Shown: positions 7,835-64,000, counted from the stretch's first letter. The stretch: 64,000 nt of DNA from a virus (IMGVR_UViG_3300028888_000124:2407-66406), one strand, 5' to 3'. The notes: generated from the sequence alone by a model not told the origin. Program-made: numbers and translations.

Positions 7835-8830
7835 ATGATTCAGTTACAGAAAGCAAAACGCAGTTAGGCGCGTATCAAATAGGCTTTGGGCGGTCCTTCC
7901 GGCAGCGGAAAAACGCTCAGTTCTCTTTTGATGGCGTATGGCCTGGTAAAAGGAGAGCATCCCGAGTGGCCGGATGATAAAATCTGGGAAAACATCTGCA
8001 TCATTGATACGGAAAACGGTTCTGCCAGCCTGTATGCCAACAGTTCTGTAGGTCAGTATAAAACAGGCTCGTATTTCACCATTCCGATGGAACCGCCTTA
8101 TACATTCGAGAGCTATGAAGCTGCGATTCATGCTGCGGAGGACGCCAATATCAAGGTAATCATCATCGACAGCCTGACGCACCTGTGGCAAGGCGAAGGC
8201 GGCGCTTTGGATATGCAGAGCAAGGTTGCTTCCGCCCGGTATCAGGGCAATAGCTACATGGCTTGGCGTGATATTACCCCCAAGCTGAATCATCTGATGG
8301 ATGTGATCCTGCAAAGCCCCTGCCACATCATTGGCAATATCCGCGCCAAGACAGACTATGTGCAGGAGAAAAACGCGGCAGGAAAAACCGTTGTAAAAAA
8401 TGTTGGTATGGGCCTGCAGATGAGAGACGGCGTGGAATTTGAATTCTCCACCGTGTTCATGTTGGATCAGGATCATATCGCAAACGCCACCAAGGATCGT
8501 ACCGGCTTGTTTGACGGAAAGTATTTCACCATCACGCCCGAAACCGGCAAGGAAATCTATCGTTGGCTGGCTTCCAGCGACAGTGCCAGCGTTCCCGAAA
8601 AGAAAACTGCGCCCGCTCCTGTGAAAACGGAGCCTGAACCTGCGGAAACCACCGACGCCGTTACCGTGGAACAGGTGGACGCATTGATCAAGAGCCGCGT
8701 GGCTGGCGTCACCCCAGAAGAGAAGAAGCAAATCATTGCGGAGCTCAAGGAAATCGCTGGAACGGCAAACTATATGAAGATTACCGACCCCGGCGTCCTG
8801 AAAGCGATCTATGATCACTTCAACGGATAA
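7835..8830 (+). CDS. RecA-like / Sak4-like ATPase (Walker A GGPSGSGKT); contains 2 in-frame TAG codons (7865, 7880) read as sense
   Basis: Strong RBS AAGGAGAAAAGG then ATG at 7835, in frame with track ORF 7886..8830; P-loop immediately after the TAGs; TAA stop. Confidence 0.75.
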
Positions 8831-8847
8831 AAGAAAGGAAAACAAGC

Positions 8848-9258
8848 ATGAATAAAGTTATGATTATTGGCAGGTAGACCGGTGATCCAACCCAGGGTCA
8901 GGGCGCTACACCCTGCGCCAACTTTTCCGTCGCGTCCGACACGCGAGTCAAAGGAAAAGACGGCGAATTCATCACCAATTTTTACCGCTGCACCGCATGG
9001 CGCGGCCAGGGCGAAAACTGCATGAAATATCTCCATAAAGGAGATCGGGTTTCCATCATTGGTGATCTGGTGCTGCAGTCCTATGTGGACATCAAGGGCC
9101 AGGAGCGCTACAGCATGCAGGTAAGCATTACCGATATCGAATTTCTGAGCGCCAAACGCTCAAAAGACGAACCGCAGCAATCACAAGCATCACGAGCAAG
9201 TTCACAGCCAACGGCAGCGGCAGTCACCGATGATAACGAGGATGACCTGCCGTTCTAA
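8848..9258 (+). CDS. ssb: single-stranded DNA-binding protein (SSB); in-frame TAG at 8875
   Basis: N-terminus MNKVMIIGR(TAG)TGDP matches the canonical SSB start MNKVILIGRLTKDP; acidic C-terminal tail DDLPF; RBS AAAGGAAAACAAGC. Confidence 0.85.
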
Positions 9259-18318: not shown

Positions 18319-18676
18319 ATGGCTGTATCGTTTAGAGAGCACCGATCCGTCCATGGGGCTTTGGTATAACGCTAACGGCGAATATGTGTGGACGATTGGT
18401 ACACTGCCGGATTGCCAAACCAGAGATCTTCCCATGGGCTATGATGAACGGTATCGGAAGGACGGGCGTTCCTGGAATTCTTCCTGCTCCAACCCGGAGG
18501 ACTTGGCGCATTGGTTCTCCTTGGATGATGCGCTGACGTTGATGAAAAAGGGTTTCCGGTTTATGAGGTATTTGGCAACGGAATATACGGAATATCCTTT
18601 GGAAACTGTGTTTATTAAAGATACCTGCCTTGCCAGTGAACCTGTAGACCCGCGTACATTATACAAGGAGATATAA
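18308..18676 (+). CDS. hypothetical protein (122 aa)
   Basis: ORF track. Confidence 0.45.
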   Translation: MEPKWLYRLESTDPSMGLWYNANGEYVWTIGTLPDCQTRDLPMGYDERYRKDGRSWNSSCSNPEDLAHWFSLDDALTLMKKGFRFMRYLATEYTEYPLETVFIKDTCLASEPVDPRTLYKEI

Positions 18677-18677
18677 A

Positions 18678-19472
18678 ATGTGCACGATTCCTGCCAATTT
18701 TAAATGGAGCTTTTCAAAATAGGAAAGCTATTCTCACTGTCCCATGATGTTCAAGCTGCATTATTTGGACGGGATCAAGGGAGATAACAATGCTTTTGCG
18801 CTGTACGGTTCGCTGTGCCATTCCCTCCTGGAGGATTATGAGAAAGGCAATATCCCCTCCTTTGCTTTGGCTGAGGAATATGAATCCCGCTATGATGGCA
18901 GCATTACTGCTCCGTGGCCGCCATTTCCCAAAGGCATGGCGCAAAAGTATTACGAGCAAGGGCTTCAGTATTTTGAATCCTTTGATGGGTTCGGCGATCA
19001 ATATGAAATCATTTCCGTAGAAGAAAAGTTTGAGCTGAACATTGAAGGATATCCTTTGGTTGGGCTGGCCGACCTGGTGCTCAGGGACAAAGAAACGGGT
19101 GAGATCACCGTCATCGATCATAAGTCCAAGTCCTCCTCCACCATGCAGAAGGATCTTCCCACTTACCGAAGGCAGCTTTATATCTATGCCGCTTACGTGA
19201 AAGAAAAGTTCGGCGTGTACCCCAAGTATTTGAAATTCAATTTGTTCCGGGAGAACGAATGGGTCACAGAAGAATTTGACCTGAACATGCTCAACGAAAC
19301 GATGAAGTGGGTGGTGGAAACGATTGAAAACATTTTGTTTGAAACGGATTGGAAGGTGTCGTGCTCGTCCTACTTCTGCCGCTTTGTCTGTTCAGTTTTC
19401 GATCATTGTCCCGCCAAGGAAGCGGTGCTGAATCCTCCGCCGAAAGAAAAGAAAGAGAAAAAGAATGAATAA
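18678..19472 (+). CDS. PD-(D/E)xK Cas4/RecB-like exonuclease with a Cys cluster; in-frame TAG at 18720
   Basis: RBS AAGGAG then ATG at 18678, in frame with track ORF 18744. N-terminus SFSK(TAG)ESYSHCP fits the S.S.L..Y..CP motif; QhxxY (YRRQLY) and C-terminal CxxxCxxxxxC. Confidence 0.7.
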
Positions 19473-22070: not shown

Positions 22071-23090
22071 ATGACGCTTGATGAAATCAAAACTTAGGTC
22101 GCTTCACCGACCTACGACTTCCTGCGTACCGATCCCCATTTGCAGGGCCGCATGGCGATGCTGTGTCTTGGCGGTTCTCATGCCTATGGCACGAATACCG
22201 AAACGAGTGATCTGGATCTTCGGGGCTGCGCCTTGAACCGTCCTGAAGAACTGCTTGGCCTTTCCCATTTTGAACAAGTTCGCAACGACGAGCTGGACGT
22301 ATGTATCTATTCCTTCAATAAAATGGTGCCGCTCCTGTATGGCTGCAACCCTAACATCATTGAGATCCTGGGCTGTAAACCGGAGCACTATTTGTTCCTG
22401 TCGGATGTTGGGAAAGAGTTGATCAGCAACCGTCATATGTTCCTGTCTCAGCGGGCATCGTATACGTTTGGGGGCTATGCCTTTTCCCAGCTTCGCCGCC
22501 TGGAGAACGCTATTGCGCGGGACAAACTGCCGCAAGCGCAAAAGGAAGGCCACATCTGCAACAGTATCGAAAAGGTGATCCGTAACTTCAACACGGAAAG
22601 CCGCGCCAAACCCGTTTCCTATATGCTTTTCCTGGCCGATGCCGTACACGATGATCTTGAAAAGGAAACGTTCATCACCACCACATTGGATATGTATCCT
22701 GTTCGTGATCTCAAGGCTTTTGTGAATGACATCAACAATGTGATTAGGGATTATGAAAACGATTTGCACGGGCGCAACAAAAAGAAGGATGACCTCCATC
22801 TGAACAAGCACGCCATGCACCTTGTCCGATTGTATCTGATGGCGATTGATATCCTGGAAAAGGAAGAGATCATCACGTACCGCGAAGCTGACCACGATCT
22901 GCTGATGGATATCCGGCATGGGAAATATCAGCTTGAAGACGGCACGTTCGATTCTGCTTTCTTCGATATGGTCAACGACTTATCCAAGAAAATGGATTAC
23001 GCAAAGGCCAATACCTCCCTTCCCCGTTCGCCCGATATGAGACGCATTGAGGAATTTATGATTGAGGTCAATAAAAAATCAATTGTTTAA
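22071..23090 (+). CDS. nucleotidyltransferase (Pol-beta-like NTase fold, GS..DLDL); in-frame TAG at 22095
   Basis: RBS AAAAGGAG then ATG at 22071, in frame with track ORF 22140; GGSHAYGTNTETSDLDL motif. Confidence 0.65.
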
Positions 23091-23101: not shown

Positions 23102-23941
23102 ATGAACTATACAGGCTATAAAACTGTTCGGTAGGACGATTCTTTGATTCCGACCCTCTACACAGAGAAGGATAAAAACTGGTTTGACTTATTGGAAAAT
23201 CAATATCTTTTGATTGTGGATGAAAATGGTGCGCCGGTTGACCGCTATAAGTGGCAGGATGGAAAGCATAAGGCGGTATATAAAAAGCCCGTTGAATCCA
23301 TGGCGATGGACAAGGTGAAGCCAAAAAACCCGGAGCAGGCATTTGCCCTGGATATGTTGCTTGATCCAACGATCACCGTGAAGGTTATGACTGGATCATT
23401 TGGTTCTGGCAAAACTATGCTGGCCTGCTGCGCCGCTTTCCAAATGATGCAGGCAACGCTGTATGATAAAATCGTTTGGATCAGAAACAACATCGAGGTA
23501 AAGGACACCAACTCCATCGGCGCTTTGCCCGGAACATATGCCGATAAAATGTCGGTTTGGGCCATGCCCCTGGCGGATCACCTGGGCGGCGTAGAGGAAC
23601 TGAACAAACAAATCATGTTCGGCAAGGTCGAGGTGGAGCACCTGGGTTTTCTTCGCGGACGCGATATCAAGAACAGCATTATCATTTGTTCGGAAGCCGA
23701 GCATTTGACCCGCGAGCATGTGCAGCTTCTGCTTGGCCGTGTGGCGGAAGGGTCTGTGCTGATTCTTGAGGGAGACTGGAAGCAGATCGATAAAAAGGCA
23801 TTTGAAAAGGACAACGGCCTGCACGCCGCCATTGACTGCCTGACGGGAAACCGCCTTTTTGGTTATGTTCATTTGAATGAATCCGTTCGCAGCGAGACCG
23901 CGAAGCTGGCTGACTTGCTGGATAAAAAAGAAGGAGATTAA
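23102..23941 (+). CDS. phoH: PhoH-like ATPase; in-frame TAG at 23132
   Basis: Walker A GSFGSGKT and ICSEAEHLT; RBS AAGGAG then ATG at 23102, in frame with track ORF 23144. Confidence 0.8.
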
Positions 23942-23945
23942 ACGA

Positions 23946-24560
23946 ATGTATATTGAAACGCCAAATCTGATTATTGATACACCGGAAAACAAACTCGCCC
24001 AGCCTGATGAAATCAGTTATTACGAATAGGAAAAGAAGCGAAAGCTGTTTCTGGATTATGATGTGAACGCGGATGTGATGGCCATTGTGCGGATGATTCT
24101 GCGCTGGAATATGGAAGACGCCGGAACCCCCCCCGAATCCCGCAAACCCATCTGGCTCTACATTGAATCCATTGGCGGCAACGCGATTTATATGTGGACT
24201 TTGATCGACGCGATCTTCGCCTCCGTTACGCCTGTGTATACTGTGAATATGGGGTTGGCTGCGTCCGCTGCTGGGCTCATCTTTATGGCGGGTTCCAAAC
24301 GATTCATGATGCCGCGTGCCAAGGTGATGATTCATGAAGGCTCCGCTTCCTTTGAAGGCGACGCGGGCAAGGTGCTGGATTTTTCCGATGCCTACAAAAA
24401 AGATTTGAAAGCAACCCGCGATTTTATCCTGGATCATACTTCCATTCCCAAGGCACAGCTCACCAAAAAACGAAGCAACGATTGGGAATTGGATTCTGCG
24501 CTTTGTTTGCAGTATCATGTGTGCGATCAGATCGTGCAAAGCCTGGAAGATATTCTATAA
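23946..24560 (+). CDS. ClpP-like serine protease subunit; in-frame TAG at 24027
   Basis: IESIGGNAIY..MGLAASAAG..MIHEGS is ClpP-like; RBS AAGGAG then ATG at 23946, in frame with track ORF 24063. Confidence 0.7.
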
Positions 24561-43401: not shown

Positions 43402-43734
43402 ATGGAAATTCTTTATGAACATGTTGCTGGTTCCGCGCCATGTATGCCGCTTGCAATTGTGGCGTGGAGTATCGCTGGGCTGATTTCTCTCTGGACTATC
43501 TATGAAGCAATTAAAGATGAAGATTCTTCATACTTGCTTATTCTTTTCCTCACGGGCATTATAGCGCTTCTTGGGTTCAAATCTACAGCTGATACCCGCT
43601 ACAACGAAGTAGTCGCTACAATCAATGAAAACGTTTCCTGGACTGAAGTGAACGATAGGTATGAACTGCTAAAACAAGAGGGTCAGCTTTATACCTTCAA
43701 AGTCAAAGAGGCACCCGATGAAGCAGAAGAATGA
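43402..43734 (+). CDS. small membrane protein
   Basis: ATG after GGAGGAATAAT, in the frame of track ORF 43360..43734. Confidence 0.4.
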   Translation: MEILYEHVAGSAPCMPLAIVAWSIAGLISLWTIYEAIKDEDSSYLLILFLTGIIALLGFKSTADTRYNEVVATINENVSWTEVNDRYELLKQEGQLYTFKVKEAPDEAEE

Positions 43735-49258: not shown

Positions 49259-49354
49259 CGCCCTGTCTCTGGATAACCTGTTTGTCGTCCAAGACAGGGT
49301 ACTTCATTTTTTTCTTGATAATTATCTAAGAAAAAATGAAAAAGTTGCCCTTCT

Positions 49355-49368
49355 GTGTCCCCATTATC
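49355..49368 (+). promoter_or_regulatory. variant of the recurring motif (TGTGTCCCCATTAT) upstream of the 49387 gene
   Basis: Read directly from the sequence. Confidence 0.3.
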
Positions 49369-49386
49369 AGTGTAAGGAGGAACGAA

Positions 49387-49701
49387 ATGAAAAAGATTGA
49401 GAAACAAAGCATCCAGTAGATCGAACAAGAAACGGATATCGTTCTTGATCCTTTGACAAAGCGGGCTACGGTATACTCCTGTATCCCGTCTATGGTGAAG
49501 AGGCTGTATGCCATGGCTGAGGAGCATGGGGATGAAGTAAAAGTCGAACTGGACAATTCTTATGGGTTCATGATCTCTGTTCCGCAAAGCTGGATCAAGG
49601 TTCGTCCGTCTGTGAAACGTCAATTGACTGATGAGCAAAAGGCGGCGCTGGCAGAAAGAATGAATAAGGTCCGAAAGGAAAAGAGAAAGGAAACAAAATG
49701 A
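49387..49701 (+). CDS. hypothetical protein (104 aa); in-frame TAG at 49417
   Basis: RBS AAGGAGGAACGAA then ATG at 49387, in frame with track ORF 49453..49701. Confidence 0.45.
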
Positions 49702-51399: not shown

Positions 51400-51600
51400 T
51401 TACCGAAGTCGCACGTCAGTCGTACTCTCTATGCTTTTCTGCGTCCCTATGGGCTACTCTTTCGAGAACGGGATCGTAACGGTTTTCCCATCTAAGGACT
51501 TCATAACCGTGTGGCTGCCCTTGCCACGTTTCGGGATGGCGGTCCATCCCTACTTAACCAGCATAGAGATGACTTCCTTTGAAGAATAGGTTTTCTTCAT
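51400..51600 (-). CDS. hicA: HicA-family mRNA interferase toxin (66 aa) with 2 in-frame TAG codons (51550, 51454)
   Basis: RBS GGAGGTGAGGCCG then ATG. Translation VK(TAG)GWTAIPKRGKGSHTVMKSLDGKTVTIPFSKE(TAG)PIGT matches HicA motifs L.K.GW...KGSH...vT.P.H...lp.Gt. Promoter TTGACT, 17 nt spacer, TATGCT lies upstream. Confidence 0.6.
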
Positions 51601-52025: not shown

Positions 52026-53210
52026 TTGACGGTTGACACTTGTAATGAATCTTTATATACTAAAGATGAGTTGGAAGAAGTAGCCAAGATGACTGCCAGC
52101 GCGGTTGTCCAAGAACTGCTTCATTCCAACGTGAACCTTGACAACTCCATATCTGAGATTATAAATGTGCCAGAAAGGACAAATGATATGGCACGTATCA
52201 AACAAAGAGTTGTCCTCCCGAACGGACAGACCGTATGGTGCACAGGAGATACAATTGGAGACGCTATTACAAACCTCATGTCGCATATCGCTATAAACAA
52301 TAACGCGCCAAAACGAACAACCCCAACCTTACAGGAATACGGAGACAAATGGTATCACCTATACCACATCAAAAAAGTAAAGTGGAATACCGCGCAAAAC
52401 ACTCGTATCTATTTGGACAAACATATCTATCCGATAATTGGAGAAAAGCATCTTGATGAAATCACATTTGACGATATTCAATCTGTTTTCAACTCCATGG
52501 ATAGCTTGGCACGATCAACTGTTGAGAAGGTACAAATTGTCCTCAATCAAATTATGAAGAATGCAATAGAAGATGGCTACATCGAGAAAAACGTTATGTC
52601 ATCTTCTCGGTATGTGTTAAGCAAGAAAGTTAAGCAGAGAGAAGCTCTATCTACATCATCCGCACAAGATGTTATCAGACAGCTGGACACCCTGGAACCA
52701 AACGATAAAATTCTTATGGCACTCATTATCTTCACAGGACTTCGGCGTGGAGAAATTCTTGCGCTGACTTGGGACGATATTGATTTTGAAAACAAAGTAA
52801 TCCACGTAAAGCACAGCGTCACATTTAAAAATAACCAACCAATCATCTGCGGGACAAAAAGCAAGTCCGGCGTAAGAGACGTTCCAATAATAAAGGAGCT
52901 AAGGGAAATACTGAGCGCGGAAGAAGATAAGCATGGCTACATCATAAAGAATCATAAGTTCCCGGACATGCCGATTACAGAAAAAACATATCAGCGGGCA
53001 TGGGAGCGAATCAAAAAAACAATTGATCTTCACAATGCTACAGCCCATGTATTCAGACACACTTTTGCCACAATGATGGAGCCACACACAGACATAAAAA
53101 CTCTGCAGACAATAATGGGGCATGCGGATATTCAAACAACAATGAACCGATATACGCATAAAATTGATAAAAATATACAGGCACTTGCAGAAATCGATTC
53201 TTTTGTGTGA
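52026..53210 (+). CDS. int: tyrosine integrase (phage integrase family)
   Basis: AHVFRHTFAT (HxxR) and NRYTH catalytic Tyr motifs. AT-rich and TAG-free, compositionally distinct from its neighbours. Confidence 0.85.
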   Translation: MTVDTCNESLYTKDELEEVAKMTASAVVQELLHSNVNLDNSISEIINVPERTNDMARIKQRVVLPNGQTVWCTGDTIGDAITNLMSHIAINNNAPKRTTPTLQEYGDKWYHLYHIKKVKWNTAQNTRIYLDKHIYPIIGEKHLDEITFDDIQSVFNSMDSLARSTVEKVQIVLNQIMKNAIEDGYIEKNVMSSSRYVLSKKVKQREALSTSSAQDVIRQLDTLEPNDKILMALIIFTGLRRGEILALTWDDIDFENKVIHVKHSVTFKNNQPIICGTKSKSGVRDVPIIKELREILSAEEDKHGYIIKNHKFPDMPITEKTYQRAWERIKKTIDLHNATAHVFRHTFATMMEPHTDIKTLQTIMGHADIQTTMNRYTHKIDKNIQALAEIDSFV

Positions 53211-53575: not shown

Positions 53576-54037
53576 TTACATTTTGTCCCCACGAATCTCG
53601 GGAACGTTTTCATTTTCTTCTTCTGGTGCCTTCTTCTCGTGCGGTAGCACAATGCAAACCGCCTCAATGATCCCGTCGATAATCATAGCGATCTGCGGTG
53701 TAATCTCAATACCAGCATTACCCAATGTCTCCTTCACGAGAGATTTGGCGTAAGGATTCCGTTCTTCTTTTGTTAAGTTTCCAAGCTTCCACGCCTTCTC
53801 TGCAATCTCCGCCCCTTCGATAGCCGCCTTCATTACGGTTGAAACGGTCTTGAGCTCCTTCCGCTCAGGCCAGATATTGTATACAGCATCACAAGCAGCC
53901 TGCAGTCCGGCGATCACAGGGCGTGACAACACAATTCTCTTCAGGATGTCGATTCCCGTAAACCGTTTGACGAAGTACAAGATCGCTACAATCGCCGCAA
54001 AAACAATCTAAGCGATTTGATAAATGTTCAGTTCCAT
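53576..54037 (-). CDS. holin, LL-H family-like (N-terminal TM plus soluble domain); in-frame TAG at 54008 inside the TM segment
   Basis: RBS GAAGGAGGG then ATG at 54037, in frame with track ORF 53576..53980. The soluble domain resembles Holin_LLH proteins. Confidence 0.6.
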
Positions 54038-54039
54038 TA

Positions 54040-54330
54040 TCCATTCCCTCCTTCAGTTTCTTCGAATTCATTCTTTACGAATCCCAGCAGCTTCTTGTGT
54101 TTATCATAGTTTTCAAAACCAGCTTTGCCAAAGTAGCCAATCAGGACAGAGCCGGTCAGCGTGGCTGTGGTTTGAAAAATTTGCTATGAGGTTTCCCCCA
54201 CCCACTCAAACAGGATAGGGAGTGTATAGGAAACAACCATGGCAACACAAAATATACCAAGCACAAAGTAGACAATTCCTTTGGATGTTTCTCTTTTCTT
54301 TTCATTATTTTTTGCTGTTGCCACAGGCAT
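54040..54330 (-). CDS. small membrane protein (96 aa, holin-like accessory); in-frame TAG at 54184
   Basis: The ORF is exactly 97 codons from ATG to TAA, and its stop overlaps the start of the holin. Confidence 0.45.
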
Positions 54331-54334
54331 CACC

Positions 54335-54766
54335 TCAAATCAAAAAATCGTTTTCTATAGTAGACTTATGGTAAAGATTTACAATGTATTTATATTCTTC
54401 CTCGAACACGCCGTTTTTATCGCCCGTTACTTTCAGAAGATTTTCATATTTATCGTTCAGGGAAATGATGTGCTGAAATTCTTCCCGCGTGTGACGAACA
54501 CCATTTCTGCAGGATGTGGAAAAAGACAGCACCTCATATCGAATCCGGTCCTTCTCGTCAGCTAATTGCTGCTCCTTGATTTCCTTCATCTCAGTAGACA
54601 TCTTGTCCAGCTTATCTTCAACTGGCTTCACGATAATCCTGCCGATCCATGAAAACTACGCGCTGATCGGATTCCATTTGATTGCCGGTGTAAACTGAAT
54701 AACGATTCCAAGGAGAAAAGCGCACAGTCCCCAGTGATCCTATATCCACTTCAATACATCGTCCAT
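54335..54766 (-). CDS. membrane-anchored coiled-coil protein of the lysis cassette; 2 in-frame TAG codons (54740, 54656)
   Basis: ATG after GGGGGTG. The C-terminal part equals track ORF 54335..54631. Confidence 0.45.
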
Positions 54767-54769
54767 TGA

Positions 54770-55558
54770 TCACACCCCCAGAGAAGTGCCCAATGCTGCG
54801 AACAATTCTCTGGCAGCCTGCGTGGAAAGAATCACAACCACCGTGTCATCTGTGGCCGGAGTGGTTTGTCCTCCATCTACCTTTTGAAGGAACTTGCTCA
54901 TCATATAGCCATCCTTGTTTTTCGTATGAATTTTTGACCAACCGCTGTCCTATTCACCGAGTACCTGTACGATTGTGCCAATGCGGATGGGCTCCAGGAT
55001 TGTCGCGTTTGTGTTGGGATTCGCCCGCATGTTCACAGTAGCGCCGCTTTGCGCCACCACCTTTGCCGAATAATTGAGCTCGCTCATTTCACGATCATCT
55101 CCCCCATTTTGTTTAATCAAATCCAATGTTCCAGTATAGTGCCACGCACCAAGTTTACTGTCTCGCTGAATACCGCCCACCACGCTGGTGCAGTGTGTAA
55201 TACACAGCGGAGAAACAGATGTGACAACGCCGACATGGTAATAGTCTCTTTGGTCTGGATGATTTCTGTAAGCATCCGGCTACGACCATTTTGCGTCGCC
55301 TGGTTCCCGCGCCTTGAAGACAAGATCACCCAAAGACAATTCAGAGGCGGAGGATACATAATGGAAATTCACCACCCTGTTTCTGGCCGTGTAATTGCTT
55401 CCGTGTGTTCCAGTCCATTTAGCGCCGCAAAGACGGACAGCCCCGATGATCTATCCGATACAATCGCATTTGCCGCCGGTTCCGTCACAAGCGTTTTGAT
55501 ATTGATTCACACGGGAAACATTTTTTTGAACTCCGTCTAAAAATTCATTCAGGGTCAT
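54770..55558 (-). CDS. endolysin: CHAP-like amidase/peptidase domain plus a C-terminal SH3b cell-wall-binding domain; 3 in-frame TAG codons (55451, 55280, 54950)
   Basis: RBS AGGTGATAGTG then ATG. Catalytic Cys/His-region motifs KCDC.., PGDLVF, DYYHVGVVTSV; SH3b-like ATVNMRANPN..GWSKI..GYMMSKFL. Contains track ORF 54950..55183, whose stop is a TAG. Confidence 0.7.
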
Positions 55559-55781
55559 CACTATCACCTGATTCCGCGTCTTCGTTTTCTGTCTCTTCCT
55601 CTGGAAGGTCTGCCAACGGGATCATTTCGTTTGTTTCCTCATATTCCCGATCCTCATCGGCTGGATCAATTGCGTCCTCATATTTGACGCCGTCCCGCGT
55701 AATATATACCCCAATGTCTGAATACGTGCGGTACAGCGTCACACCGTCACTGCGAACCACATAAAGCTCTTTCACGATCAT
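55545..55781 (-). CDS. small acidic protein
   Basis: ORF track. Confidence 0.3.
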   Translation of the reverse strand: MIVKELYVVRSDGVTLYRTYSDIGVYITRDGVKYEDAIDPADEDREYEETNEMIPLADLPEEETENEDAESGDSDDPE

Positions 55782-56952
55782 GCTGATTCCTCCTTCTTAT
55801 TTCTCTCTTCGAAAACCATGGAAAATCTCTTTGCTCCTTCGGAAACAATTCCCTCACTAACTGTTCCATTTTACAAATCGTTCTGAACGCCATAAAATTT
55901 CTTGCGTATGCCCGCCAGGAAATGAAGGATTGAAAAACTTCAAGCGGTGTCATCTTTCCATTTTCCACCCGTGTCTTTAACCGTTTCAACTTCCGCCTTT
56001 CTACCACAACGCTGTGCTTATATATTTTTTTGATTACCTTGCCGCTGTTCGTCAGGTAGAATCGCGCTTTAAGAAAAGTGAATCCATGGGTCAGCTTCAC
56101 AATCTGCGTTTTCTTTGTATTCATCACAATGCCAAGCTCGTCGCAAATCCTGCGAATCTCTTTGAGGCAATGCCGCAAGTATTCCTTGGATGGGTGAATC
56201 AGGTATCCGTCATCCATATATCTTCCGTACCATTTGATCCTGAGCACTTCCTTCACGTAATGATCCAAACGGTTGGCGGAGGCAAGCGCCTATATCTGAC
56301 TTACCTGGCTGCCCAGTCCCAAACCTTTATCGCCAAACATGTGAACCATTTGCATAGCGACACTCTTTATTTCATTGTCCGAAACTGCCCGGTCGATCAC
56401 CTGTTCTATGACGGCGTGTGACACATTATCAAAGAATTTGCTGAAATCAAAAAGCAGCACATATCCATCATTTCCGTATTTCCGGTAATACTGGCGCAGG
56501 TGCGTTTCCATTCGCCTGATCGCAAATGCGTATCCCTTGTTCTCCATTGACGCGCCGTTATCATATATAAAAGAGCGTTTGACGGCGGGAACCAGGGCGT
56601 AATCGCAAAGACAGCGCTGTACACCACGCTCTCGAACTGTCACGCTTTTGATGTGGCGGTCATGGCCGCGTTCCCTGATATCAAACTCATAGAATTTATC
56701 TGGCTTGAATTTGCGTTTCTTCATTCTCCGGTAGCATTTTTCCACTTCCGTCGGAGCAAAGACGATTTGCTTTTGAATGCTGGCCTTCCATCTTACGCCA
56801 CGAGTGCATAGCTGAAAAGCCCGATAAAGGTGAGGATAGCTGAAAACCTGATCGTATGTGCCGATCTGGTTTTTGTTATATTCTTTCTATTTCTGTTTTC
56901 TCTTTTGAATACGGCGCTGGTATCTCGCCTCATGCCTTTCTTTGCTGTTCAT
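55747..56952 (-). CDS. DGR reverse transcriptase (motif 4 LGSQVSQ of the SQ type, YMDD); 2 in-frame TAG codons (56887, 56290)
   Basis: Fuses track ORFs 56290..56745 and 55747..56268 across the TAG at 56290, which sits in the S(P/Q)LLAN motif, and extends to the ATG at 56952 after GGAGGAAGA. RT motifs 1 to 7 are recognisable. Confidence 0.85.
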
Positions 56953-57180
56953 TCTTCCTCCAAAAATGGGCAGTCGCCCACGTCTGATAGATGGCTTTCC
57001 GCGATAGACGCATAGAACCACTGGGCATGAAACAAAGGGTTCGCCATCGACCTTTGCCATGCAAGAAGCGTCCGCCCAGGTTCGTCACGACTGATATTTA
57101 CGCTGAATGCGAAGGTTATTTCCTCCTTCTCTCCACCCGCGCTGATTTCGCAAAGCCTACTTTGTCTGACGGAGAGGATC

Positions 57181-57336: not shown

Positions 57337-57750
57337 TTAAAATGGTTCGTTCAAAAACGACCAACGCTTTTTATCTGTTTCCATTACGCCTTGAATCAGG
57401 CGCATCTCTTCATTGATTTTTTCACTCCATTGCTGTATAATATTTTTGTCAATACCGAATCTGCCGTCTGCGAGGCCGATGAAACAGTCCAGCTTTTTCA
57501 GTTCACCAATGGCTTTCATGAAATAATCTTTTCTGGTCTGCAGCTCTCCTGCGTTCGTCGGCCAGATGTTATTGGCTTCGATCACATGACCGCAGGTATC
57601 AAGCGCTGCGTCGATGATTCTTTGCCCCAGGCCGAAGCGCTGTCCCTTTGGAAAATGCCCATACTGCACAAGCGTGAAGGCTGCCTATTCGCGGGCTTGA
57701 TAAATAAATTGCGTTGATGGTTCTGATCGTAGACTTTTAGGGACTGACAT
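57337..57750 (-). CDS. avd: Avd-like DGR accessory protein (four-helix-bundle protein family); in-frame TAG at 57685
   Basis: QRFGLGQRIIDAALDT..IEANN pattern of the four-helix-bundle family. ATG at 57750 after AGGAGG, in frame with track ORF 57337..57669. Sits between the target gene and TR-RT. Confidence 0.7.
57373..57405 (+). promoter_or_regulatory. plus-strand copy of the TCTGTTTCCATTAC motif followed by the hairpin cgcct-tgaatc-aggcg, inside the minus-strand avd gene
   Basis: Read directly from the sequence. Confidence 0.3.
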
Positions 57751-57769
57751 TTCCTTTTATCCTCCTGCG

Positions 57770-57800: not shown

Positions 57801-57817
57801 TTTAAGATTTTAGATTA

Positions 57818-58936
57818 TCAAATGCAGAAGCCGAAGACCACGCCATACGTGCCGGTCGGACCGTAATTGCCGCTGCCGCCGCCGCCGTACACACTCACGA
57901 AGTACGAAGTCGAAAACGCAGAACGGGTCCACCAGGAGTTCGTAGAGCCGGTTGATGTAAACCTGACCCTGCTTGAGCTATCATCAAAAATGCCGGTATA
58001 CTGCACGCCGCTTGTTTCTTTCAAATAGTTGCCCGTAAAACATACTTCGCGGGATGACGGGATCCACAGCTTGTCGCTGCTTGTTTTCTATTCCCCAGCG
58101 TTGCTGTTGGCGGTTGCGTCCCAATAGGTTTTGTTGACCGCCTTGATAACGCCTTCCGCCTGCAGTTCGGAAGGAAGCTGACTGAACACTGTATCGTTCA
58201 GCCAATACCGCATAGTGTTGGTTCCGCTTGCGCCCCAGCCATCGGTCATGCTGCTTCCCATTGCGTGGGTGCCATATTGCTGGGCAAGGAGCCACGTCAT
58301 TTTTGCGTTTCCGCCGCTGGTCAGTTCGTCCGCGTTTTTGGCTGCCAGCGTAATAATATAATTCGTTCCATTCAGGTTGATGTACGCCGTGTCCCCCACG
58401 TTGTATTTGGAATCAAACGTCCCATCCTCTCCGGCGGCAATGATTTGTGCCCAGGTATCGGTAATTGTTACGAAGCTTGTTTTCGGATAGGAGCTGATGG
58501 GAAAAATCACATTGCGGTATGCTTTCCAGTTGCTGGCAGCTTTATAGGTATCGACAAGATTGTCGGTCACATAAATACCCGCCTGGCCTTTTGCAATAGG
58601 AGTGCTGGCAAATGCGTCATAATTGTTCAACGTGCAAGCTTGGGCATTTTCCAGAATCACGCCCTTTAAAGCGGAGCACCCTGAAAAGGCAGACTGGATT
58701 GCACACTTGCCGCCAATTCTTACCGTTTCCTATGCGGTGCAGTCACTAAAAGCAGAAGAACCCAAAGAGGTCAGAGTGGGAAAATTCACGTCCTTCTACG
58801 TGGTCTGCTTATACATTGCGTATTGACCGAGCGTAGATATGCCGTCGTCCACAAACTCTGTCAGCGTATGGGCGATCAAAGCATCCAATGTTCCTTGGTC
58901 TCCCAGCGTTGCTTTGGTGTTGGTATATGTTGCCAC
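57818..58936 (-). CDS. DGR target protein 1: LRR (BspA-type) plus a C-terminal variable domain ending GVVFGFCI; 3 in-frame TAG codons (58796, 58730, 58088)
   Basis: Fuses track ORFs 57818..58024 and 58088..58660 and extends to the GTG at 58936. It is a paralogue of the C-terminus of the giant gene. VR1 lies at 57832..57952. Confidence 0.7.
57832..57952 (-). repeat. DGR variable repeat 1 (VR1)
   Basis: Matches TR except at TR adenine positions. Confidence 0.8.
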
Positions 58937-59003
58937 AAAAACACCTTCTTTCAAAGAGTGAGGGGCGGCAGGGACGCCGCCCCGATTTTAAGATTTCAGA
59001 TTA

Positions 59004-62000
59004 TCAAATGCAGAAGCCGAAGACCACGCCAAGCGTGCCGGTCGGACCGTTACTGCCGATGCTGCCGTAGTAGAGCACACTCACGAAGCCCGAAGTCGAA
59101 TACGCAGAACGGGTCCACCAGTTGCTCGTAGAGCCGGTAGTCAAATCGTATTTCTTCCTATTATTATTGCTTGTGAATTTGCTGGAATAAATAACGCCGC
59201 TCGTCTCCTGCGCGTATTGCCCAGTGAAGCCAACCTCCCGTCCAGATGCCAGCCAAACCTTCATTGCCGCAGTTTGAGTTGTGTTTGCTGAAGCGTCCCA
59301 GTATGTCTTATCAACAGACTTGATACCAGTTGACGCTTTCAACGCAGCGGGCAGACTGTTGTATACATCATTTTCCAGGTATGTGCACATTTCTGTCTGG
59401 ACATAAGGGACCATTGAACCGTGCATGCGTTTCGTTTCCGCAAAGTCCTTGACCATCCATGCAGTCTTCGCCGTTCCTTCTTCACCGATATTGACCAGCT
59501 CCATCATAACCAGCTTGCCGTCTCCGTAAGTAACGGACTTGGTTGCGCCCACCGTGTATGAGAATGTACCGGAGTTAATATTACTTACGATGGTAGCCCA
59601 GTCATCGGTAATAGAACCAAAGTCTGTTACAGGGTAATCTCCGATTGGATGGATTCTGCTGGCATATGCGCTCCAATTGGTTGCGGACTTGTACTGTGCC
59701 ACCAATGAGGCGGGCACATAAATTACTCCGAAACCGGAAGTGAACGGGTTAGAAGGCAAAGCGTTAGATGAAGCCAACGTAGCCACGCCAGATGTGGAAC
59801 GAATAAACAGAGCAGTCAGCGCATTACAGCTTGAGAATGCGTTTGCCGCAATACTCACTTGCCCGCTTGTCGCGGTCAAGTCAACGGTGTTCAGTTTGGA
59901 ACAGCCAGAGAAGGCATATTGCTCAATCGTGGTAGCGGATGTTGTTGCTGTTTCCAGCGTGCTCATATTATAGAACGCATATTGTCCAACCGTTGTAGCC
60001 GTGTCGCTCTCGTACTCCGTCATGGTTCTCGCCAGATACTTCACAATCGGAGAACTCATATCCCGGAACACAGCATAGCATGTGGTGTTGCCCTGAATAT
60101 TCGTAGGAGCAGGAGACCATCCGTCAAACACAAACGCGCTGCCGCGAGATGAGGTAGGCGTTGATCCGGTATAGCTTGCGCTTCCGCCATAAGGCACATT
60201 GTTCACTGTCTGCAATGTTCCGCCGCCGTCAGTAGAATTCTTGGCGAAAGTTACGGTGTAAACCTGTCCGGTCAGGCGGTAAGCCGCATAGACGTTTCTA
60301 TCCGCCGTCACGTTTTGCGTGGCCGTGCTGTCCACTGTGGTGGAATTTGTGTTCCTGCTCCATCCAATGAATGTAAAGGTATTCGCTGCCGTAGCCGCGT
60401 GTGTTGGTTGGCCGCTCCAAGTTCCATTACCACCGTCAACAATCGTATCGGTGTGGAGAAGCGTATCACCCTCGTAGTTATAGTAATGCAGATAACTGGT
60501 GATATGATCAAACAATACAGTAATATCGGGATATCGTTCCTGCAGGCTGGCCATTTGTGCGCCTGTCAAAGAAGGAATATGGATCACGCCGCGCACCTGC
60601 GCTCTGTCCACATTGCCGCCGTTTTCGTCCAGGCCCCGCATGGTATCCTACTTGTTATACAGCGCGTTTGCCGCCGCGTAGTCCACCATATTCCAGGTAA
60701 ATCCAATCAGCCGCAGACGGGAATTGGCCGCCAGGGAATTGACGATAGAAGCAGAATCAATTGTATTGCTCACGTTTTCCAGTCTCAAGGTGGTAATGTT
60801 CGCCCCAGAAGGAAGCGTGAATTCCGTAATGCCTGTCTGGTTCAGGATCGTCAGGTTGGTGATCGTAGAAGGAAGATGCAGTTTTTTCAGCACACCGCCG
60901 TTAGGCAGGGCCACGCCTGTAATCTGCGTTCCGTCAAAGTAGACTTCTTCAATGGCTATGCAGCCGGAAAGGTCAACCGATTTCTGGTCGCCCGTTCCAA
61001 GCGCTGTGCAGTTCCGAGCGTCCAATGTCTTGAGCAGCTTGTTGCTTCCCAGCGTCAGGTTGTTCAGGTTGGGGTTTTCATAGTTTGCGTCCGAATCGCC
61101 CACCTTGATGTGCTGCAGGTTGACGCCCATGGAGAAGTCGGCAAAGCCCACCTTCAACCCGGACAAGTCGCCGCAGGATGCAATCTGGGGCGCGGAATAG
61201 ATATAGATTTCTGTATCGTTCACGTTGTCCAGCGGGCAGGCCAGGGTTGTCGCCTGTCCATGCGTGCCGCGCTGCTGCACCAGGTAAGAGGCGTATTTCA
61301 CGGTTGGGTAAATGTCAGTGTAAGGAGTAAGGGTGATGTCCGCTTTTGCGTAACCGCGCAGCTGGATCACCTGGCTCAATGCCTCACCCGCATTCCATTT
61401 GGAATCCAGATACTTGAAGCGGTTATACAGCCACCATTTTCTTTGTTCCGTCTTTGATCCCTGCAGCATTGGCAGATATACGGCTGTTGGCTGCTTGCCG
61501 GGGTCGGGAGAAATCAGCGGCATAATGTATTTGAACCATGCGTCTTCGTTCCACACGGCTTCCGGCCATTTCTCCTGGTGCGTTTCAAAGCGCCGCTCCA
61601 CTTCCGCGTAAGACAGCGTTCCGTTTGAGCGCAGGGTTTGGTACATTTGCCGGATCTCGTTGGAGAATGCGTCGCGCACATTGCACCACAGCACGGAATC
61701 CTGTCCGTTGAACACGTTCGCGCCTCCGGCAAGATGGTCGGTGTCTTCCAAAGAATATCCAAACACCAGCGAGCCTTCGTTGTTCGTGCCAAGGCCGGTA
61801 TCCATGTCGTAAGGTTCCGCCACCGCTTTACGGTCAATATGCTGAATCTTTGTGGGGTCGGTGTCTGAGCCGGAGAAACCAATAAACAGGTTCTTGGCTC
61901 GGCTGTCCACCATCAGGAAGAATTCCGTAAAGATATAATAGAAGATAAAGGACTGCACTTCGGCGTAATTGCCAAACTCCGCCTTGAACTTCGCCAATCT

Positions 62001-64000
62001 GTAATTTGCGGAGTCGGTCGTATAGGTCACGCCGTCATAGGTCACGGAATCCGCCTAAGCGTCGCCCGTTGCCTCTGTTCTGTCGGTAGACACAATGAAG
62101 GATTGCAGTTCCTGAAGCTTCGTGTAATCCACCCATTCGTCAGATGGGAAGCGGGCTTCAAAGTCATAGCGCCACAGTTCTTTTGTTTCGCCGGTGTCAG
62201 GGTCGGTATACATGGTTTCGTCGAAATAGTCAGATTTGTAAACCATCAGGTCAGAAGTGTTGTTCTGGAATTCCCAGCTTTCCATGTTACCCGAATAGCC
62301 ATAAGGTTCCGGTGCTCTCTTGGGCAGGTTGAAGTTATATTTTCCAAGGAAAGAAGTGGTTCCGCTGTCCGTATTGTTCCAGAACACCACCATCGGGAAT
62401 CCGAAAATACCCTGGCGCACTTTGGGGTTGGCGATCATTTCCCGCGTCTTGAAAGGAGAAATGTCACAGTACAGCTTCACCAACTCCACGTTGTTCGCGC
62501 CTTCGCTGGAAGCCACGTCCGCCTTATACACAAAACGGTTGAAAGGAATAACGGAAGAATCCAGAGCATAATTGTCAATGTGTCCATAATTGGTTTCAAA
62601 TCCGCTCTTGTATTGCGTGTCGTAGTTTTTCCGGGCATAAGGAGCAGATGAAGTACCCTGCACGTTGATTTGCACGCCGGTCGCCACAAAGCTCTTTTCC
62701 GCATGAACAGGGTCAATGTAGCGGATAGTACATGTTTTTTTATCCCCTTTGTACTGGGGCAGCTCAGGCACCTCAATGATGACGTATGGCAGGTCGCCCG
62801 GCAAGCTGGAAATCACGATGTTTCCATACTCGTCATACACCTTGTTGCGGTTATACCGCGCCACCATATCTTCGATCACCTGGGTATCCGCAATCCAGTT
62901 GTCCAGAATCTGATTTCTGTTCAGGTCGTTGTCATACACGCGGATGCAATAGATGTCCACCGCGCAATCGTTTGAGCCGATGGAAATGTTCGCGGGTGTC
63001 GCTTGCGCAAAGTCGTCGTCGCTCGGATATTGCACCACGCCGCTCATGATGCCGTTCACGTAGCAGAAAACCAGCCGGTTTTCCGATCTCTTTTCCACCA
63101 CGAATGACAGCCGCACATGCTCGTTTTCTTTGTACTGCATGGAGATTTCGCTCTGCTCGGATTTCAGCGTCGCTTTCTGGGATGTCATCGAAAATCCCCG
63201 TCCGCCGTTCATGCTGGAAATAATTGTCGCGTCGTAGTCCAGCACGGAACGGGTGGCAAACTCAACCTCAATCGTCTTGCCTGTGCCGCGGAAGTCCGTC
63301 TCAAAAATCTTGTAAGGAATGGTCACTCTCGCGTCGCCAGCCACGCGCAGAACGGGCGTACCCTCCTCGTCGTGCTGCCATCCGTCAGAGGTCCAGTTAA
63401 AGTCGCTCATGGTCGCGGAGATATTGCCGGAAGTCCATGTCGCCCTTGCCACGGCGGATTCGTCGTTGCTTCGTCCGGCGCTGGTCAGGTACAGCGCAAG
63501 GTCTTCCGTTTCGGCAGCCACGTCGATCTCGCTTTCAGTCACGGTGATCGTGAACGCACGCACCTCTTCCCCGCTTGCAATGGTGACGGTCATCGTTCCG
63601 GTATTCACAGGCCGATAGTCAAACACATGGCTTGTGCGGTCCACGTTGGTCAGCGTGGAGACCACTTCATTGTTGATCGCAATGGTCACGTCGGACACCA
63701 TGCTCAAAGGATTATAAACAGTGTAATCAATATGAATAGGCGTATACTGCGTAACAGATGTTGTGGTGAAGTTTGATGTGATAATTGGTTCTGAGCTCAG
63801 AGGATCAATGCAGATGATTTCGTAATACAGCTCGTTGCTGCGAACGGTTTGGCCGTTGATCTCTGCTTCAAAATAACACCGCAGCGTATGCGCCCCGTGA
63901 GATTGCTGCAAAATTGTGTAAGATTGCTGGCGGTTGGAAACGGATGTAGTCGCTGTTCCAATAAATTCATTGGCGGTTCCTTCGTCCAGAATAAAATAAA
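59004..64000 (-). CDS. giant DGR target protein 2 (over 1650 aa, N-terminus beyond the window): lectin-like domain, LRR arrays and a C-terminal variable domain; at least 2 in-frame TAG codons (62055, 60648)
   Basis: Track ORFs 62055..63911, 60648..62045 and 59004..60641 share one frame and are separated only by TAG. The frame stays open upstream to the window end. VR2 lies at 59018..59138. Confidence 0.7.
59018..59138 (-). repeat. DGR variable repeat 2 (VR2)
   Basis: Matches TR except at TR adenine positions. Confidence 0.8.

Follow-up and report, generated by a model that had tools for sequence, protein, structure and literature searches.

In-frame TAG codons of a temperate rumen phage most likely stand for leucine

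TAG is a sense codon, and never a terminator, in the phage represented by the 64,000-nucleotide stretch analyzed here (IMGVR_UViG_3300028888_000124:2407-66406; hereafter, the window). Judging from the residues aligned with it in related phages, TAG most likely stands for leucine. The window is part of a 70-kb contig of a temperate tailed phage of ~118 kb, recovered from rumen metagenomes. We consider it very probable that this phage makes sparing use of TAG to encode leucine and that TAG is read by a phage-encoded CUA tRNA derived from tRNA-Leu.

Megablast and tblastn searches against GenBank phages gave no close relative (best primase match, 31% identical), and IMG/VR yielded nothing when scanned with single proteins, namely the T4-type RNA ligase, the reverse transcriptase (RT) and a protein of L045. 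From a chimeric homology query, the sole result was a 70,172-bp twin contig; the L045 protein was not recovered. The TerL matches P0176, P0154 and P0196 were rejected as candidates for the window phage's own TerL because they belong to other phages. Related fibre genes were found in Lachnospiraceae and Ruminococcus genome bins. The fibre-gene relatives L018 to L040 are mostly 50- to 70-kb phages that share only the fibre with the window phage; they were used for the fibre TAG columns and not for synteny.

TAG is read as a sense codon

When TAG is read as sense in the curated gene set, 23 genes between positions 7835 and 63911 are interrupted by a total of 37 in-frame TAG codons, the first at 7865-7867 and the last at 62055-62057 (Table 1). 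Tiling gave 74 ORFs of 80 aa or longer, of which 42 end in TAA, 32 in TGA and none in TAG, in agreement with an earlier note on this DNA, made from the sequence alone, according to which TAG is a sense codon and every unambiguous stop checked is TAA or TGA. The gene sets of related phages give the same picture: L017 has 17 in-frame TAGs and L061 has 38, and TAG terminates none of 34 genes in L017, none of 23 in L061 and none of 10 in L050. Under the standard code, 7 of the 82 plus-strand ORFs stop at TAG, and each of these frames is open for a further 8 to 127 codons; in the small ORF with the C-terminal hydrophobic helix, 30 codons are open past the TAG. Gene re-calling with TAG as sense, which had been suggested as a check, extended these frames but raised coding density only slightly, from 0.931 to 0.944 in the window and from 0.939 to 0.948 in the region 7835-64000, because TAG is rare (~0.2% of codons). 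The 37 TAGs amount to ~3% of the leucine codons of the phage.

Table 1. Genes of the window, with their in-frame TAG codons, and tRNA(CUA) genes of related phages
Feature	Coordinates	Strand	In-frame TAG	Pfam match or remark
Tyrosine integrase	6151..7074	+	0 of 307 codons (Leu, 28)	Phage_integrase
Sak4-like ATPase	7835..8830	+	7865-7867, 7880-7882	AAA_24, E=8e-17; TAGs just ahead of Walker A motif
SSB	8848..9258	+	8875-8877 (residue 10, IGR-TAG-T)	SSB, residues 1-100, across TAG
PD-(D/E)XK nuclease	18675..19472	+	18720-18722	PDDEXK_1, E=2e-18
RlaP-family nucleotidyltransferase	22071..23090	+	22095-22097 (residue 9)	RlaP; TAG N-terminal of match
PhoH-like ATPase	23102..23941	+	23132-23134 (residue 11)	PhoH, E=1.6e-37
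ClpP-family protease	23877..24560	+	24027-24029	CLP_protease, E=5e-21
RNA ligase	30360..31451	+	30369-30371 (residue 4)	PHA02142, RNA_ligase
Anaerobic ribonucleotide reductase NrdD	33719..35611	+	33728-33730 (residue 4)	NRDD, E=2e-94
Small zinc-ribbon-like ORF	35805..36047	+	35853-35855	
Small ORF, C-terminal hydrophobic helix	40215..40490	+	40395-40397	
DUF1599 protein	42677..42991	+	42743-42745	DUF1599
RuvC-like resolvase	43718..44230	+	43757-43759, 43784-43786, 43982-43984, 44072-44074, 44210-44212	RuvC; match takes in 3 of 5 TAGs
ORF of unknown function	46848..47420	+	46887-46889, 47241-47243	
ORF of unknown function	49336..49701	+	49417-49419	
HicA toxin	51400..51600	-	51550-51552, 51454-51456	HicA_toxin, E=1.4e-11, residues 7-57, spans both TAGs
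Second tyrosine integrase	52026..53210	+	0 of 394 codons	Phage_integrase families
Three small membrane proteins (putative holins)	53576..54766 (53576-54037, 54037-54333, 54335-54766)	-	54008-54010, 54184-54186, 54740-54742, 54656-54658	
Endolysin, C-terminal SH3b domain	54770..55567	-	55451-55453, 55280-55282, 54950-54952	SH3_3
Reverse transcriptase, diversity-generating retroelement	55747..57060	-	56887-56889, 56290-56292	RVT_1
Avd-like accessory gene	57337..57750	-	57685-57687	Assigned by position
LRR_5/DUF6273 target protein	57818..58954	-	58796-58798, 58730-58732, 58088-58090	LRR_5, DUF6273
Giant fibre gene	59004..64000	-	62055-62057, 60648-60650	Runs upstream past window end
tRNA(CUA) of L061	6906-6984			Between tRNA-Leu(UAA) and tRNA-Leu(AAG)
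tRNA(CUA) of L050	12643-12734			
tRNA(CUA) of L053	6641-6717			
tRNA(CUA) of L051	8353-8439			
tRNA(CUA) of L067	5713-5797			

Family models support this reading. Pfam matches with a TAG inside were obtained for SSB, AAA_24, PDDEXK_1, RuvC, HicA_toxin, RVT_1, SH3_3, LRR_5 and DUF6273, and 6 genes have their TAG immediately N-terminal of the domain that was matched. The earlier note had counted more than 20 interrupted genes of clear family membership; the 23 genes agree with the count, but a Pfam family was matched in only ~15 of them. The RuvC with five TAGs and the Sak4-like protein with two TAGs right before the Walker A motif were recovered as described. The endolysin, read before as a CHAP-SH3b protein with three TAGs, retains the TAGs, one in the context CDCIG-TAG-I, as well as its SH3 domain, but CHAP was not confirmed by Pfam; in a PDB search, the SH3 domain alone matched, and its TAG lies in a variable loop. 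The label "holin" for the three small membrane proteins, given because they adjoin the lysin, found no confirmation in Pfam, in which none of them had a convincing match; no relative was found for these proteins. Upstream of the RT, an Rfam RT-2 RNA overlaps the region. For the giant fibre gene, standard-code callers give three pieces (1024, 465 and 545 aa) that all lie in one frame, as had been proposed for the three ORFs of the giant LRR protein, and the gene is one continuous ORF in 23 relatives.

That the TAGs are instead true stops, marking pseudogenes, split genes with internal starts or assembly errors, or else sites of pyrrolysine insertion, has a negligible probability in our assessment. 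The standard-code annotation of the same contig does call the fragments as separate genes. However, the identical window sequence was obtained in independent assemblies of ENA, JGI and Logan data. Moreover, L017 has TAG at eight of the TAG positions of the window, in genes whose protein identity ranges from 31 to 92%, and essential motifs, such as the SSB N-terminus and the P-loop strand, straddle TAGs; TAG-terminated genes, as noted above, are absent from all four gene sets. The phage with a tRNA(CUA) between two tRNA-Leu genes has eight TAG positions in common with the window. L017 keeps the TAG of the zinc-ribbon-like ORF (78% identity), that of the ORF at 49336 (67% identity), the first TAG of the ORF at 46848 and the TAG at residue 4 of NrdD, and its DNA is 95% identical in the HicA region. 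Pyrrolysine, suggested by the label "tRNA-Pyl" that ARAGORN attaches to the CUA tRNAs of related phages, is contradicted by aligned residues that are leucine rather than lysine-like and by the match of four aligned CUA tRNAs to tRNA-Leu genes along their length (see below); ARAGORN gives this label to any CUA tRNA, and it reflects the anticodon only.

Residues opposite TAG

Tabulating the residues aligned with TAG had been proposed as a check on leucine, and leucine emerged as the best model. At the 17 informative TAG sites of the window, 55 of the 70 aligned residues in relatives are L, and the others include F (4), N (3), T (2) and Q (1). Using substitution frequencies drawn from the same alignments as the TAG columns, we obtained site-weighted log10 likelihoods of -18.15 for Leu, -22.6 for Met and -28.0 for Gln; that is, Leu is favored over Met by 10^4.5 and over Gln by ~10^10. 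In the reciprocal test, 35 TAG sites of the 116.8-kb relative L061 aligned with L (62), I (11) and V (4), and the log10 likelihoods were -20.4 for Leu, -38.8 for Met, -59.3 for Tyr and -61.9 for Gln, favoring Leu over Met by 10^18 and over Gln by ~10^41. At the TAG sites of L050, Gln is less likely than Leu by ~10^7. For TAG sites in relatives, curated gene lists replaced an automatic six-frame analysis, which was discarded because antisense ORFs contaminated it with false alignments to Y and K. TTG codons opposite TAG, whose enrichment would point to a one-step path between the two codons, gave no signal at such divergence (9% versus 11%).

Wherever a TAG column is conserved, the residue is leucine. 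This holds for SSB, in which five of five relatives have Leu (CTG), exactly as the placement on IGRLT had implied; for the Avd-like gene (five of five relatives), although the name Avd lacks a Pfam match; for the two fibre sites (21 of 22 and 19 of 20); and for RuvC residue 89, with L in 106 of 119 among the 120 homologues aligned. At the other RuvC sites, these homologues have L (24) and Q (6) at residue 23, L (68) at residue 119, L (11), Q (11) and F (5) at residue 14, and Y (36), M (28) and L (27) at residue 165; one homologue, P0002, has L at all five TAG columns. The DUF1599 position is Leu (CTC) in L017, and the TAG that L017 has at NrdD residue 62 aligns with Leu in the window. The Sak4-like ATPases of L013 and L012 have L and Q at the first TAG and L in both at the second.

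Eleven alignments had been listed in the earlier note as placing TAG on a conserved leucine or hydrophobic residue; the conserved columns are leucine as claimed, but others proved variable. The nuclease described as Cas4 has L in one relative and I in the other, and ClpP has L in two relatives and M in a third. In the LRR target protein, the two repeats with TAG on a supposed Leu have L in two relatives each, together with one S and one T, respectively, and the third column (residue 289) varies between N, V, I and D. The RVT_1 match takes in TAG; the column of the SQI-TAG-ALASAN motif is F (3) and L (2) rather than purely Leu, and the other RT column (residue 58) has K. Similarly, the HicA_toxin match spans both TAGs, but the first lies in a variable column, as do the SH3 TAG and the PhoH TAG (S and D in relatives). 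The second TAG of the ORF at 46848 is opposite A in a poorly aligned region, and among the window residues opposite the TAGs of L017 are one each of Q, R, K and I. None of the relatives aligned covers residue 9 of the RlaP-family protein or residue 4 of the RNA ligase, and a homologue search with the ORF at 40215 found none among the relatives.

In all phage cases that we found in the literature, recoded TAG is read as glutamine (genetic code 15), and database proteins of the clade indeed show Q at TAG positions; in one relative, the TAG at residue 11 of Sak4 is likewise opposite Q, and so is one TAG site of L017. Nevertheless, we regard glutamine as very improbable here, in line with the view in the earlier note that it does not fit. 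The Q in the database homologues represents TAG codons, because the gene caller translated TAG under code 15; it alternates with L in columns that are otherwise hydrophobic. Furthermore, TAG columns are L, I, V, M or F in the RuvC homologues and at the L061 sites, and the likelihoods disfavor Gln in all three phages.

A hydrophobic residue other than leucine (Met, Ile or Phe), or ambiguous decoding by more than one tRNA, would account for mixed columns such as RuvC residue 165, the RT motif and TerL residue 77 of L061 (I, 58; L, 49), and the two structural kinds of CUA tRNA in the clade (see below) would be compatible with ambiguity. Against this stand the preference for Leu over Met in both the window and L061, the nearly pure Leu of the strongly conserved columns, and aligned CUA tRNAs that resemble tRNA-Leu and not tRNAs for Met, Ile or Phe. 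We therefore judge this possibility to be improbable and favor leucine.

Candidate suppressor tRNAs in related phages

The earlier note had suggested searching for a tRNA(CUA) of the leucine type. Genes for tRNA(CUA) were found in five related phages, but the 80 kb read of the ~118-kb window phage (window, L004, L011 and L045) contained no tRNA gene. In the relatives, which are 58 to 86% identical to the window phage in shared proteins, the tRNA(CUA) belongs to a cluster of tRNA genes upstream of the terminase gene (Table 1). An 81-nt tRNA-like insert in L049 was rejected as a suppressor because it has no CTA triplet.

Based on sequence resemblance and the discriminator base, the tRNA(CUA) of the relatives appear to be of the leucine type. 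All five have A73. The four aligned tRNA(CUA) have a AATTGGCAGAC-type D-arm as in tRNA-Leu genes, unlike tRNAs for Tyr, Ser and Gln, and match ordinary tRNA-Leu genes along their whole length; the best pairwise match (81%) is to a tRNA-Leu(UAA). Co-resident tRNA-Gln genes start with A1, have G73 in two of three cases and have another D-arm, while the aligned tRNA(CUA) have G1 and A73; such differences, which concern the D-arm, the 1:72 pair and, in two of the three genes, the discriminator, are a further argument against glutamine. The phages bearing these tRNAs themselves give Leu at their own TAG sites. The long variable arm named with A73 as a leucine identity element in the earlier note is not general: the clade has two structural kinds of tRNA(CUA), one whose variable loop is short and the other with a long arm and C33, and this unusual C33 is present in two of the tRNAs.

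In E. coli, the suppressor supP (Su6) is a tRNA-Leu in which a single anticodon change to CUA leads to insertion of leucine at UAG. Such laboratory tRNA-Leu amber suppressors are mutant cellular tRNAs, and their suppression is partial. A CUA anticodon works in tRNA-Leu because the identity elements recognized by E. coli LeuRS are A73 and tertiary contacts and not anticodon bases, as the earlier note had assumed, and a LeuRS has been shown to charge a tRNA-Leu with a short variable loop (PMC6614811). Differently from supP, the tRNA in the related phages is a conserved phage gene, and the genome is adapted to it, with no TAG terminators and with TAG at conserved Leu positions.

Suppression by a tRNA from the host or a co-resident element, with TAG still read as leucine, is an unlikely but not far-fetched alternative. 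It would fit the lack of tRNA genes in the 80 kb read, as well as published surveys, in which only 35 to 52% of recoded phages have a suppressor tRNA, and the relative L062, which has a similar tRNA cluster without a CUA tRNA. However, L062 is also without in-frame TAGs, the CUA tRNA of five relatives is in the cluster adjoining the terminase gene, and the cluster of the closest syntenic relative lies ~10 to 12 kb beyond the end of L045, outside the 80 kb read. We therefore favor a phage-encoded tRNA and suggest that the window phage carries the same tRNA(CUA) in the remaining ~38 kb of its genome. This tRNA, derived from tRNA-Leu and with the anticodon CUA, would decode UAG; it would presumably be charged with leucine by the host LeuRS and would have release factor 1 as its competitor at UAG.

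Relation to known codes and significance

The window phage resembles the code-15 gut phages (crAss-like, Lak, Garnet, Topaz and phAss-1) in having in-frame TAGs and no TAG terminators, in the tRNA(CUA) in a phage tRNA cluster (here in relatives), and in fibre homologues in Lachnospiraceae and Ruminococcus MAGs, groups without a reported alternative code. It differs from them in the amino acid, in the sparse use of TAG, in the presence of TAG in SSB, Sak4 and RuvC rather than mainly in late genes, and in a suppressor that resembles tRNA-Leu. Integrase genes are without TAG in the temperate Garnet and Topaz phages (Borges et al.), and likewise, both integrases of the window phage are TAG-free.

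UAG is assigned to leucine in NCBI tables 16 and 22, and this assignment is described for chytrid mitochondria and phyllopharyngean ciliates. The assignment is the same here, but those codes are eukaryotic and genome-wide, whereas here a virus would bring the code into a host that presumably uses the standard code. Our literature search found no report of UAG read as leucine in bacteria or phages; if true, this would be the first natural UAG-to-Leu code outside eukaryotes. Borges et al. observed only TAG-to-Gln and TGA-to-Trp recoding in phages and attributed this limit to GlnRS and TrpRS being susceptible to suppressor tRNAs. A TAG-to-Leu lineage would break this limit and add LeuRS as a third route.

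The current pipelines prodigal-gv, geNomad and Pharokka-gv offer only code 15, and therefore public proteins of this lineage show Q where L belongs. If leucine is correct, code-15 annotation mistranslates an entire phage lineage, and Q in place of L at TAG sites impairs structure prediction as well as homology searches. Candidates for suppressor engineering are available in the natural tRNA-Leu(CUA) genes, among them the forms with a short variable loop or C33.

Tentatively, and with somewhat more doubt than confidence, we suggest that a clade of ~115- to 120-kb temperate rumen and gut Firmicutes phages may have its own UAG = Leu code, served by CUA tRNAs derived from tRNA-Leu, some with short loops and some with C33. 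TAG would be favored within the first quarter of a gene and ahead of a purine, so that recombination, toxin, lysis and fibre genes would be licensed for translation only on expression of the suppressor, while the host code would suffice for the integrases and the core replisome. Code-based gene regulation in a temperate phage is suggested by TAGs placed N-terminally and by integrases that are free of TAG.

Read-through of TAG in the window

We identified 37 in-frame TAG codons that are read through in 23 genes of the window, all located within 7835-63911. Among the 74 window ORFs of at least 80 aa, 42 terminate at TAA, 32 at TGA, and none at TAG. Read with the standard code, the 82 plus-strand ORFs include 7 that stop at TAG, and all 7 stay open in frame for a further 8 to 127 codons. 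Pfam models for SSB, AAA_24, PDDEXK_1, RuvC, HicA_toxin, RVT_1, SH3_3, LRR_5, and DUF6273 span TAG positions. The giant fibre gene, which standard-code callers split into 1024, 465, and 545 aa in a single frame, is one unbroken ORF in 23 relatives, and a Logan gene call on identical DNA reads through TAG in the RT (437 aa) and the lysin (262 aa). The number of read-through codons, the lack of TAG terminators, and the Pfam matches bear out the proposal in the earlier note that TAG is a sense codon, a reading that we regard as practically certain. That note also counted more than 20 interrupted genes of clear family; read-through held for all 23, but a family match was obtained for only ~15 of them, and the labels CHAP, Avd, and holin came without Pfam confirmation. 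TAG use is sparse (42 of ~18,000 codons), and because the codon is so rare, reading it as sense leaves coding density nearly unchanged, which is probably why the ENA and JGI gene calls kept the standard code.

Residues opposite TAG

Relatives with DNA comprised IMG/VR loci L012 and L013 (primase 70-73% identical to that of the window phage) and L014-L016 (primase 58%), the 116.7-kb ENA scaffold L017 (NrdD 86%, RuvC 66%), and 23 IMG/VR loci (L018-L040) with the fibre gene in common. Opposite TAG, these relatives have L in SSB (5/5), the Avd-like gene (5/5), DUF1599, and the fibre gene (21/22 and 19/20 at the first and second TAG, respectively); L, L, and M in ClpP; I and L in the PD-(D/E)XK nuclease; L/Q and L/L for the two Sak4 TAGs; and F (three) or L (two) in the RT motif. 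At a few variable TAG columns, relatives have S, D, K, N, T, or Y. Among 120 RuvC homologues, residue 89 is L in 106 of 119, while the other four TAG columns are hydrophobic and mostly L; in homologue P0002, all five residues are L. We estimated substitution frequencies from these alignments (42,142 residue pairs), weighted the 17 informative sites equally, and obtained log10 likelihoods of −18.15 for Leu, −22.6 for Met, −24.8 for Ile, and −28.0 for Gln.

The Q residues of the database homologue P0005 coincide exactly with TAG codons in its DNA (L017). Such Qs are artefacts because the gene caller used code 15, and their interchange with L in hydrophobic columns is evidence for leucine. Based on these alignments, TAG very probably specifies leucine in the window phage. 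P0001, P0003, P0005, and others have Q at TAG positions in the public protein collection as a result of code-15 calls, and each affected gene of this clade is probably represented by a public protein with at least one wrong residue.

In contrast, L031 (IMGVR_UViG_3300037400_003961; 132.7 kb, GC 31%), an unrelated phage with only the fibre in common with the window phage, is heavily TAG-recoded: 22 kb of its sequence contains 66 in-frame TAGs, its coding density rises from 0.53 to 0.95, and the residues opposite its TAGs are E, T, Q, and A, not L. Phages with one common fibre family may thus hold two different meanings of TAG side by side. Stop-codon recoding is well established in phages, and every phage case that we found was TAG to Gln, one with proteomic validation; Borges et al. 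observed only TAG to Gln and TGA to Trp. The window phage, with leucine as the probable meaning, differs from these published phages. UAG to Leu is established in green-algal and chytrid mitochondria and some ciliates; in the open-access literature searched, which leaves absence unproven, we found no report of it in phages or bacteria.

Genome extent and suppressor tRNAs

An exact-protein look-up placed the window in ENA contig ERZ27257205:k141_3889370 (69,949 bp), in which position 2427 is window position 1. The JGI 3300032030 assembly (69,952 bp) is 100% identical, as are pieces from two Logan runs. The contig is a partial genome; on the left, 2.4 kb before window position 1, it breaks off in a tandem repeat with at least 14 copies of the 15-nt unit CACCGGGCACCGCAA, and on the right it breaks off within a repetitive tail gene. 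Capsid, portal, and terminase genes were not found on its ~70 kb. The repeat lies within a protein-coding gene, codes for a TGHRN/TGDGN-type peptide repeat, and is the point at which all assemblies of this phage break. A repeat search of JGI metagenomes identified a second contig, Ga0310697_10000562 (48,501 bp), which was assembled from the same sample, ends in this repeat, and bears the N-terminal half of the broken gene; the genome is therefore ~118 kb, of which 80 kb was read.

ARAGORN and Rfam detected no tRNA genes, whether in the window, at the contig ends, or in the 10 kb of the second contig that was read. In the closest syntenic relative (L013's phage; loci L048 to L050 along its IMG/VR contig), a tRNA cluster directly upstream of the terminase gene includes a 92-nt tRNA with anticodon CUA. 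Regions located by terminase search contained 23 tRNAs in L061, part of the 116.8-kb phage that also bears L017, with a 79-nt tRNA(CUA) flanked by tRNA-Leu(UAA) and tRNA-Leu(AAG), and one tRNA(CUA) each in the loci L053, L051, and L067. All five CUA tRNAs have discriminator A73. The D-arm AATTGGCAGAC is common to the four that were aligned and to local tRNA-Leu genes, unlike local Tyr, Ser, and Gln tRNAs. In pairwise comparisons, the closest matches were mostly tRNA-Leu genes, at no more than 81% identity. A tRNA(CUA) is thus present in five relatives (A73 in all five, a Leu-type D-arm in the four aligned), and none was detected in the 80 kb read of the window phage. Synteny with L013's phage places the expected tRNA cluster ~10-12 kb past the end of L045, the fetched part of the second contig, and we consider it likely that the unread part of the genome encodes a tRNA-Leu(CUA).

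Judged by their alignments, the phages of L061 and L050 decode TAG like the window phage. The phage of L061 has eight TAG positions in common with the window. L061 has 38 in-frame TAGs in 23 genes, and its 35 informative sites (L 62, I 11, V 4) gave log10 likelihoods of −20.4 for Leu, −38.8 for Met, −59.3 for Tyr, and −61.9 for Gln. For L050 (10 TAGs in 10 genes; 9 informative sites), the values were −7.1 for Leu, −11.9 for Met, and −14.3 for Gln.

The tRNA-Leu genes of L061, L051, and L062 are only 75-80 nt long and type I-like, with variable loops of ~9 nt; in bacteria, tRNA-Leu nearly always belongs to type II (PMC6614811). In the CUA tRNAs of L050 and L067, C33 replaces the near-universal U33 (anticodon loops CCCTAAA and CCCTAAC). 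These two tRNAs have long variable arms and are built differently from the short suppressors of L061 and L053. A tRNA-Met(CAT)-like gene in L049 appears to hold an 81-nt tRNA-like insert in its anticodon loop, with an 8-bp acceptor stem, which ARAGORN calls 'tRNA-???' with a 4-base anticodon.

Coordinates of features in the window and in fetched loci
Feature	Locus	Positions	Remark
Short tRNA-Leu genes	L061	5980-6059, 6775-6852, 6991-7068	
Short tRNA-Leu gene	L051	6985-7059	
Short tRNA-Leu gene	L062	2189-2265	relative without CUA tRNA
C33 tRNA(CUA)	L050	12643-12734	
C33 tRNA(CUA)	L067	5713-5797	
tRNA-Met(CAT)-like gene	L049	130-275	− strand; L050 ~10620-10770
15-nt tandem repeat	L004	1-211	contig end
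15-nt tandem repeat	L045	1-45	
TAG-free integrases	Window	6151-7074, 52026-53210	
TAG-free large replication genes	Window	12595-14430, 19465-20763, 27112-30291	
NAD-salvage and RNA-repair-like genes	Window	15103-18318, 21288-23090, 30360-31451, 44636-45628	
Diversity-generating retroelement	Window	55747-59138	− strand; RT, RT-2 RNA, Avd-like gene, two repeats
Rfam RT-2 RNA	Window	56951-57174	
185-nt repeats	Window	57770-57952, 58954-59138	85% identical
Comparison with variant contig L009	Window	55539-57932	6 mismatches, 3 gaps
Islands of high identity to L017	Window	47418-47748, 50980-51312, 51352-51674, 41387-41552	HicA toxin gene in 51352-51674

Gene content and placement of TAG

Besides two tyrosine integrases and a block of genes for replication and nucleotide metabolism, the window phage has genes for NAD salvage (isochorismatase/nicotinamidase, NAD synthase, a nucleotidyltransferase, and NAPRTase), RNA repair (Thg1, RlaP, and two RNA ligases), the HicA toxin, and lysis, together with a diversity-generating retroelement and the giant fibre gene. 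Rumen MAGs of Lachnospiraceae, Ruminococcus, and Parasporobacterium contain homologues of the fibre gene. We take the NAD-salvage and RNA-repair-like genes to be an unusual auxiliary load for a phage. The retroelement's two repeats lie at the C-termini of the two LRR_5/DUF6273 proteins. Four islands are 90-97% nucleotide-identical to L017 against a coding background of ~70%; those other than the HicA island could reflect recent exchange or a non-coding function.

On comparative sequence grounds, TAG is translated, TAG columns are leucine columns, and relatives carry Leu-type CUA tRNAs. In the mechanism that we propose, the window phage would have its own Leu-type tRNA(CUA), the host LeuRS would charge it, and the charged tRNA would outcompete release factor 1 at UAG. 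The identity elements of E. coli tRNA-Leu are A73 and tertiary contacts, the anticodon excluded, and a bacterial LeuRS can charge a tRNA-Leu with a short variable loop (PMC6614811).

TAG codons cluster near gene starts. In the window, the first quarter of the ORF contains 22 of 37 (p=9e-6), and the first 10% alone contains 12 (p=1.7e-4); in the pooled relatives L061, L050, L017, and L067, 39 of 83 fall within the first quarter (p=1.2e-5). This clustering may act as a translational gate. A purine follows TAG in 30 of 37 cases in the window, compared with 56% after ordinary Leu codons (p=0.001), and in 60 of 83 compared with 61% in the relatives (p=0.017), a bias consistent with selection for efficient suppression. 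Both integrases, the primase-helicase, the DNA polymerase, and the ligase are TAG-free with 28-91 Leu codons each; the integrases of the temperate recoded phages of Borges et al. likewise have no TAG. Together, the purine bias, the clustering at gene starts, and the TAG-free genes suggest tuning of TAG use for suppression and, possibly, regulation.
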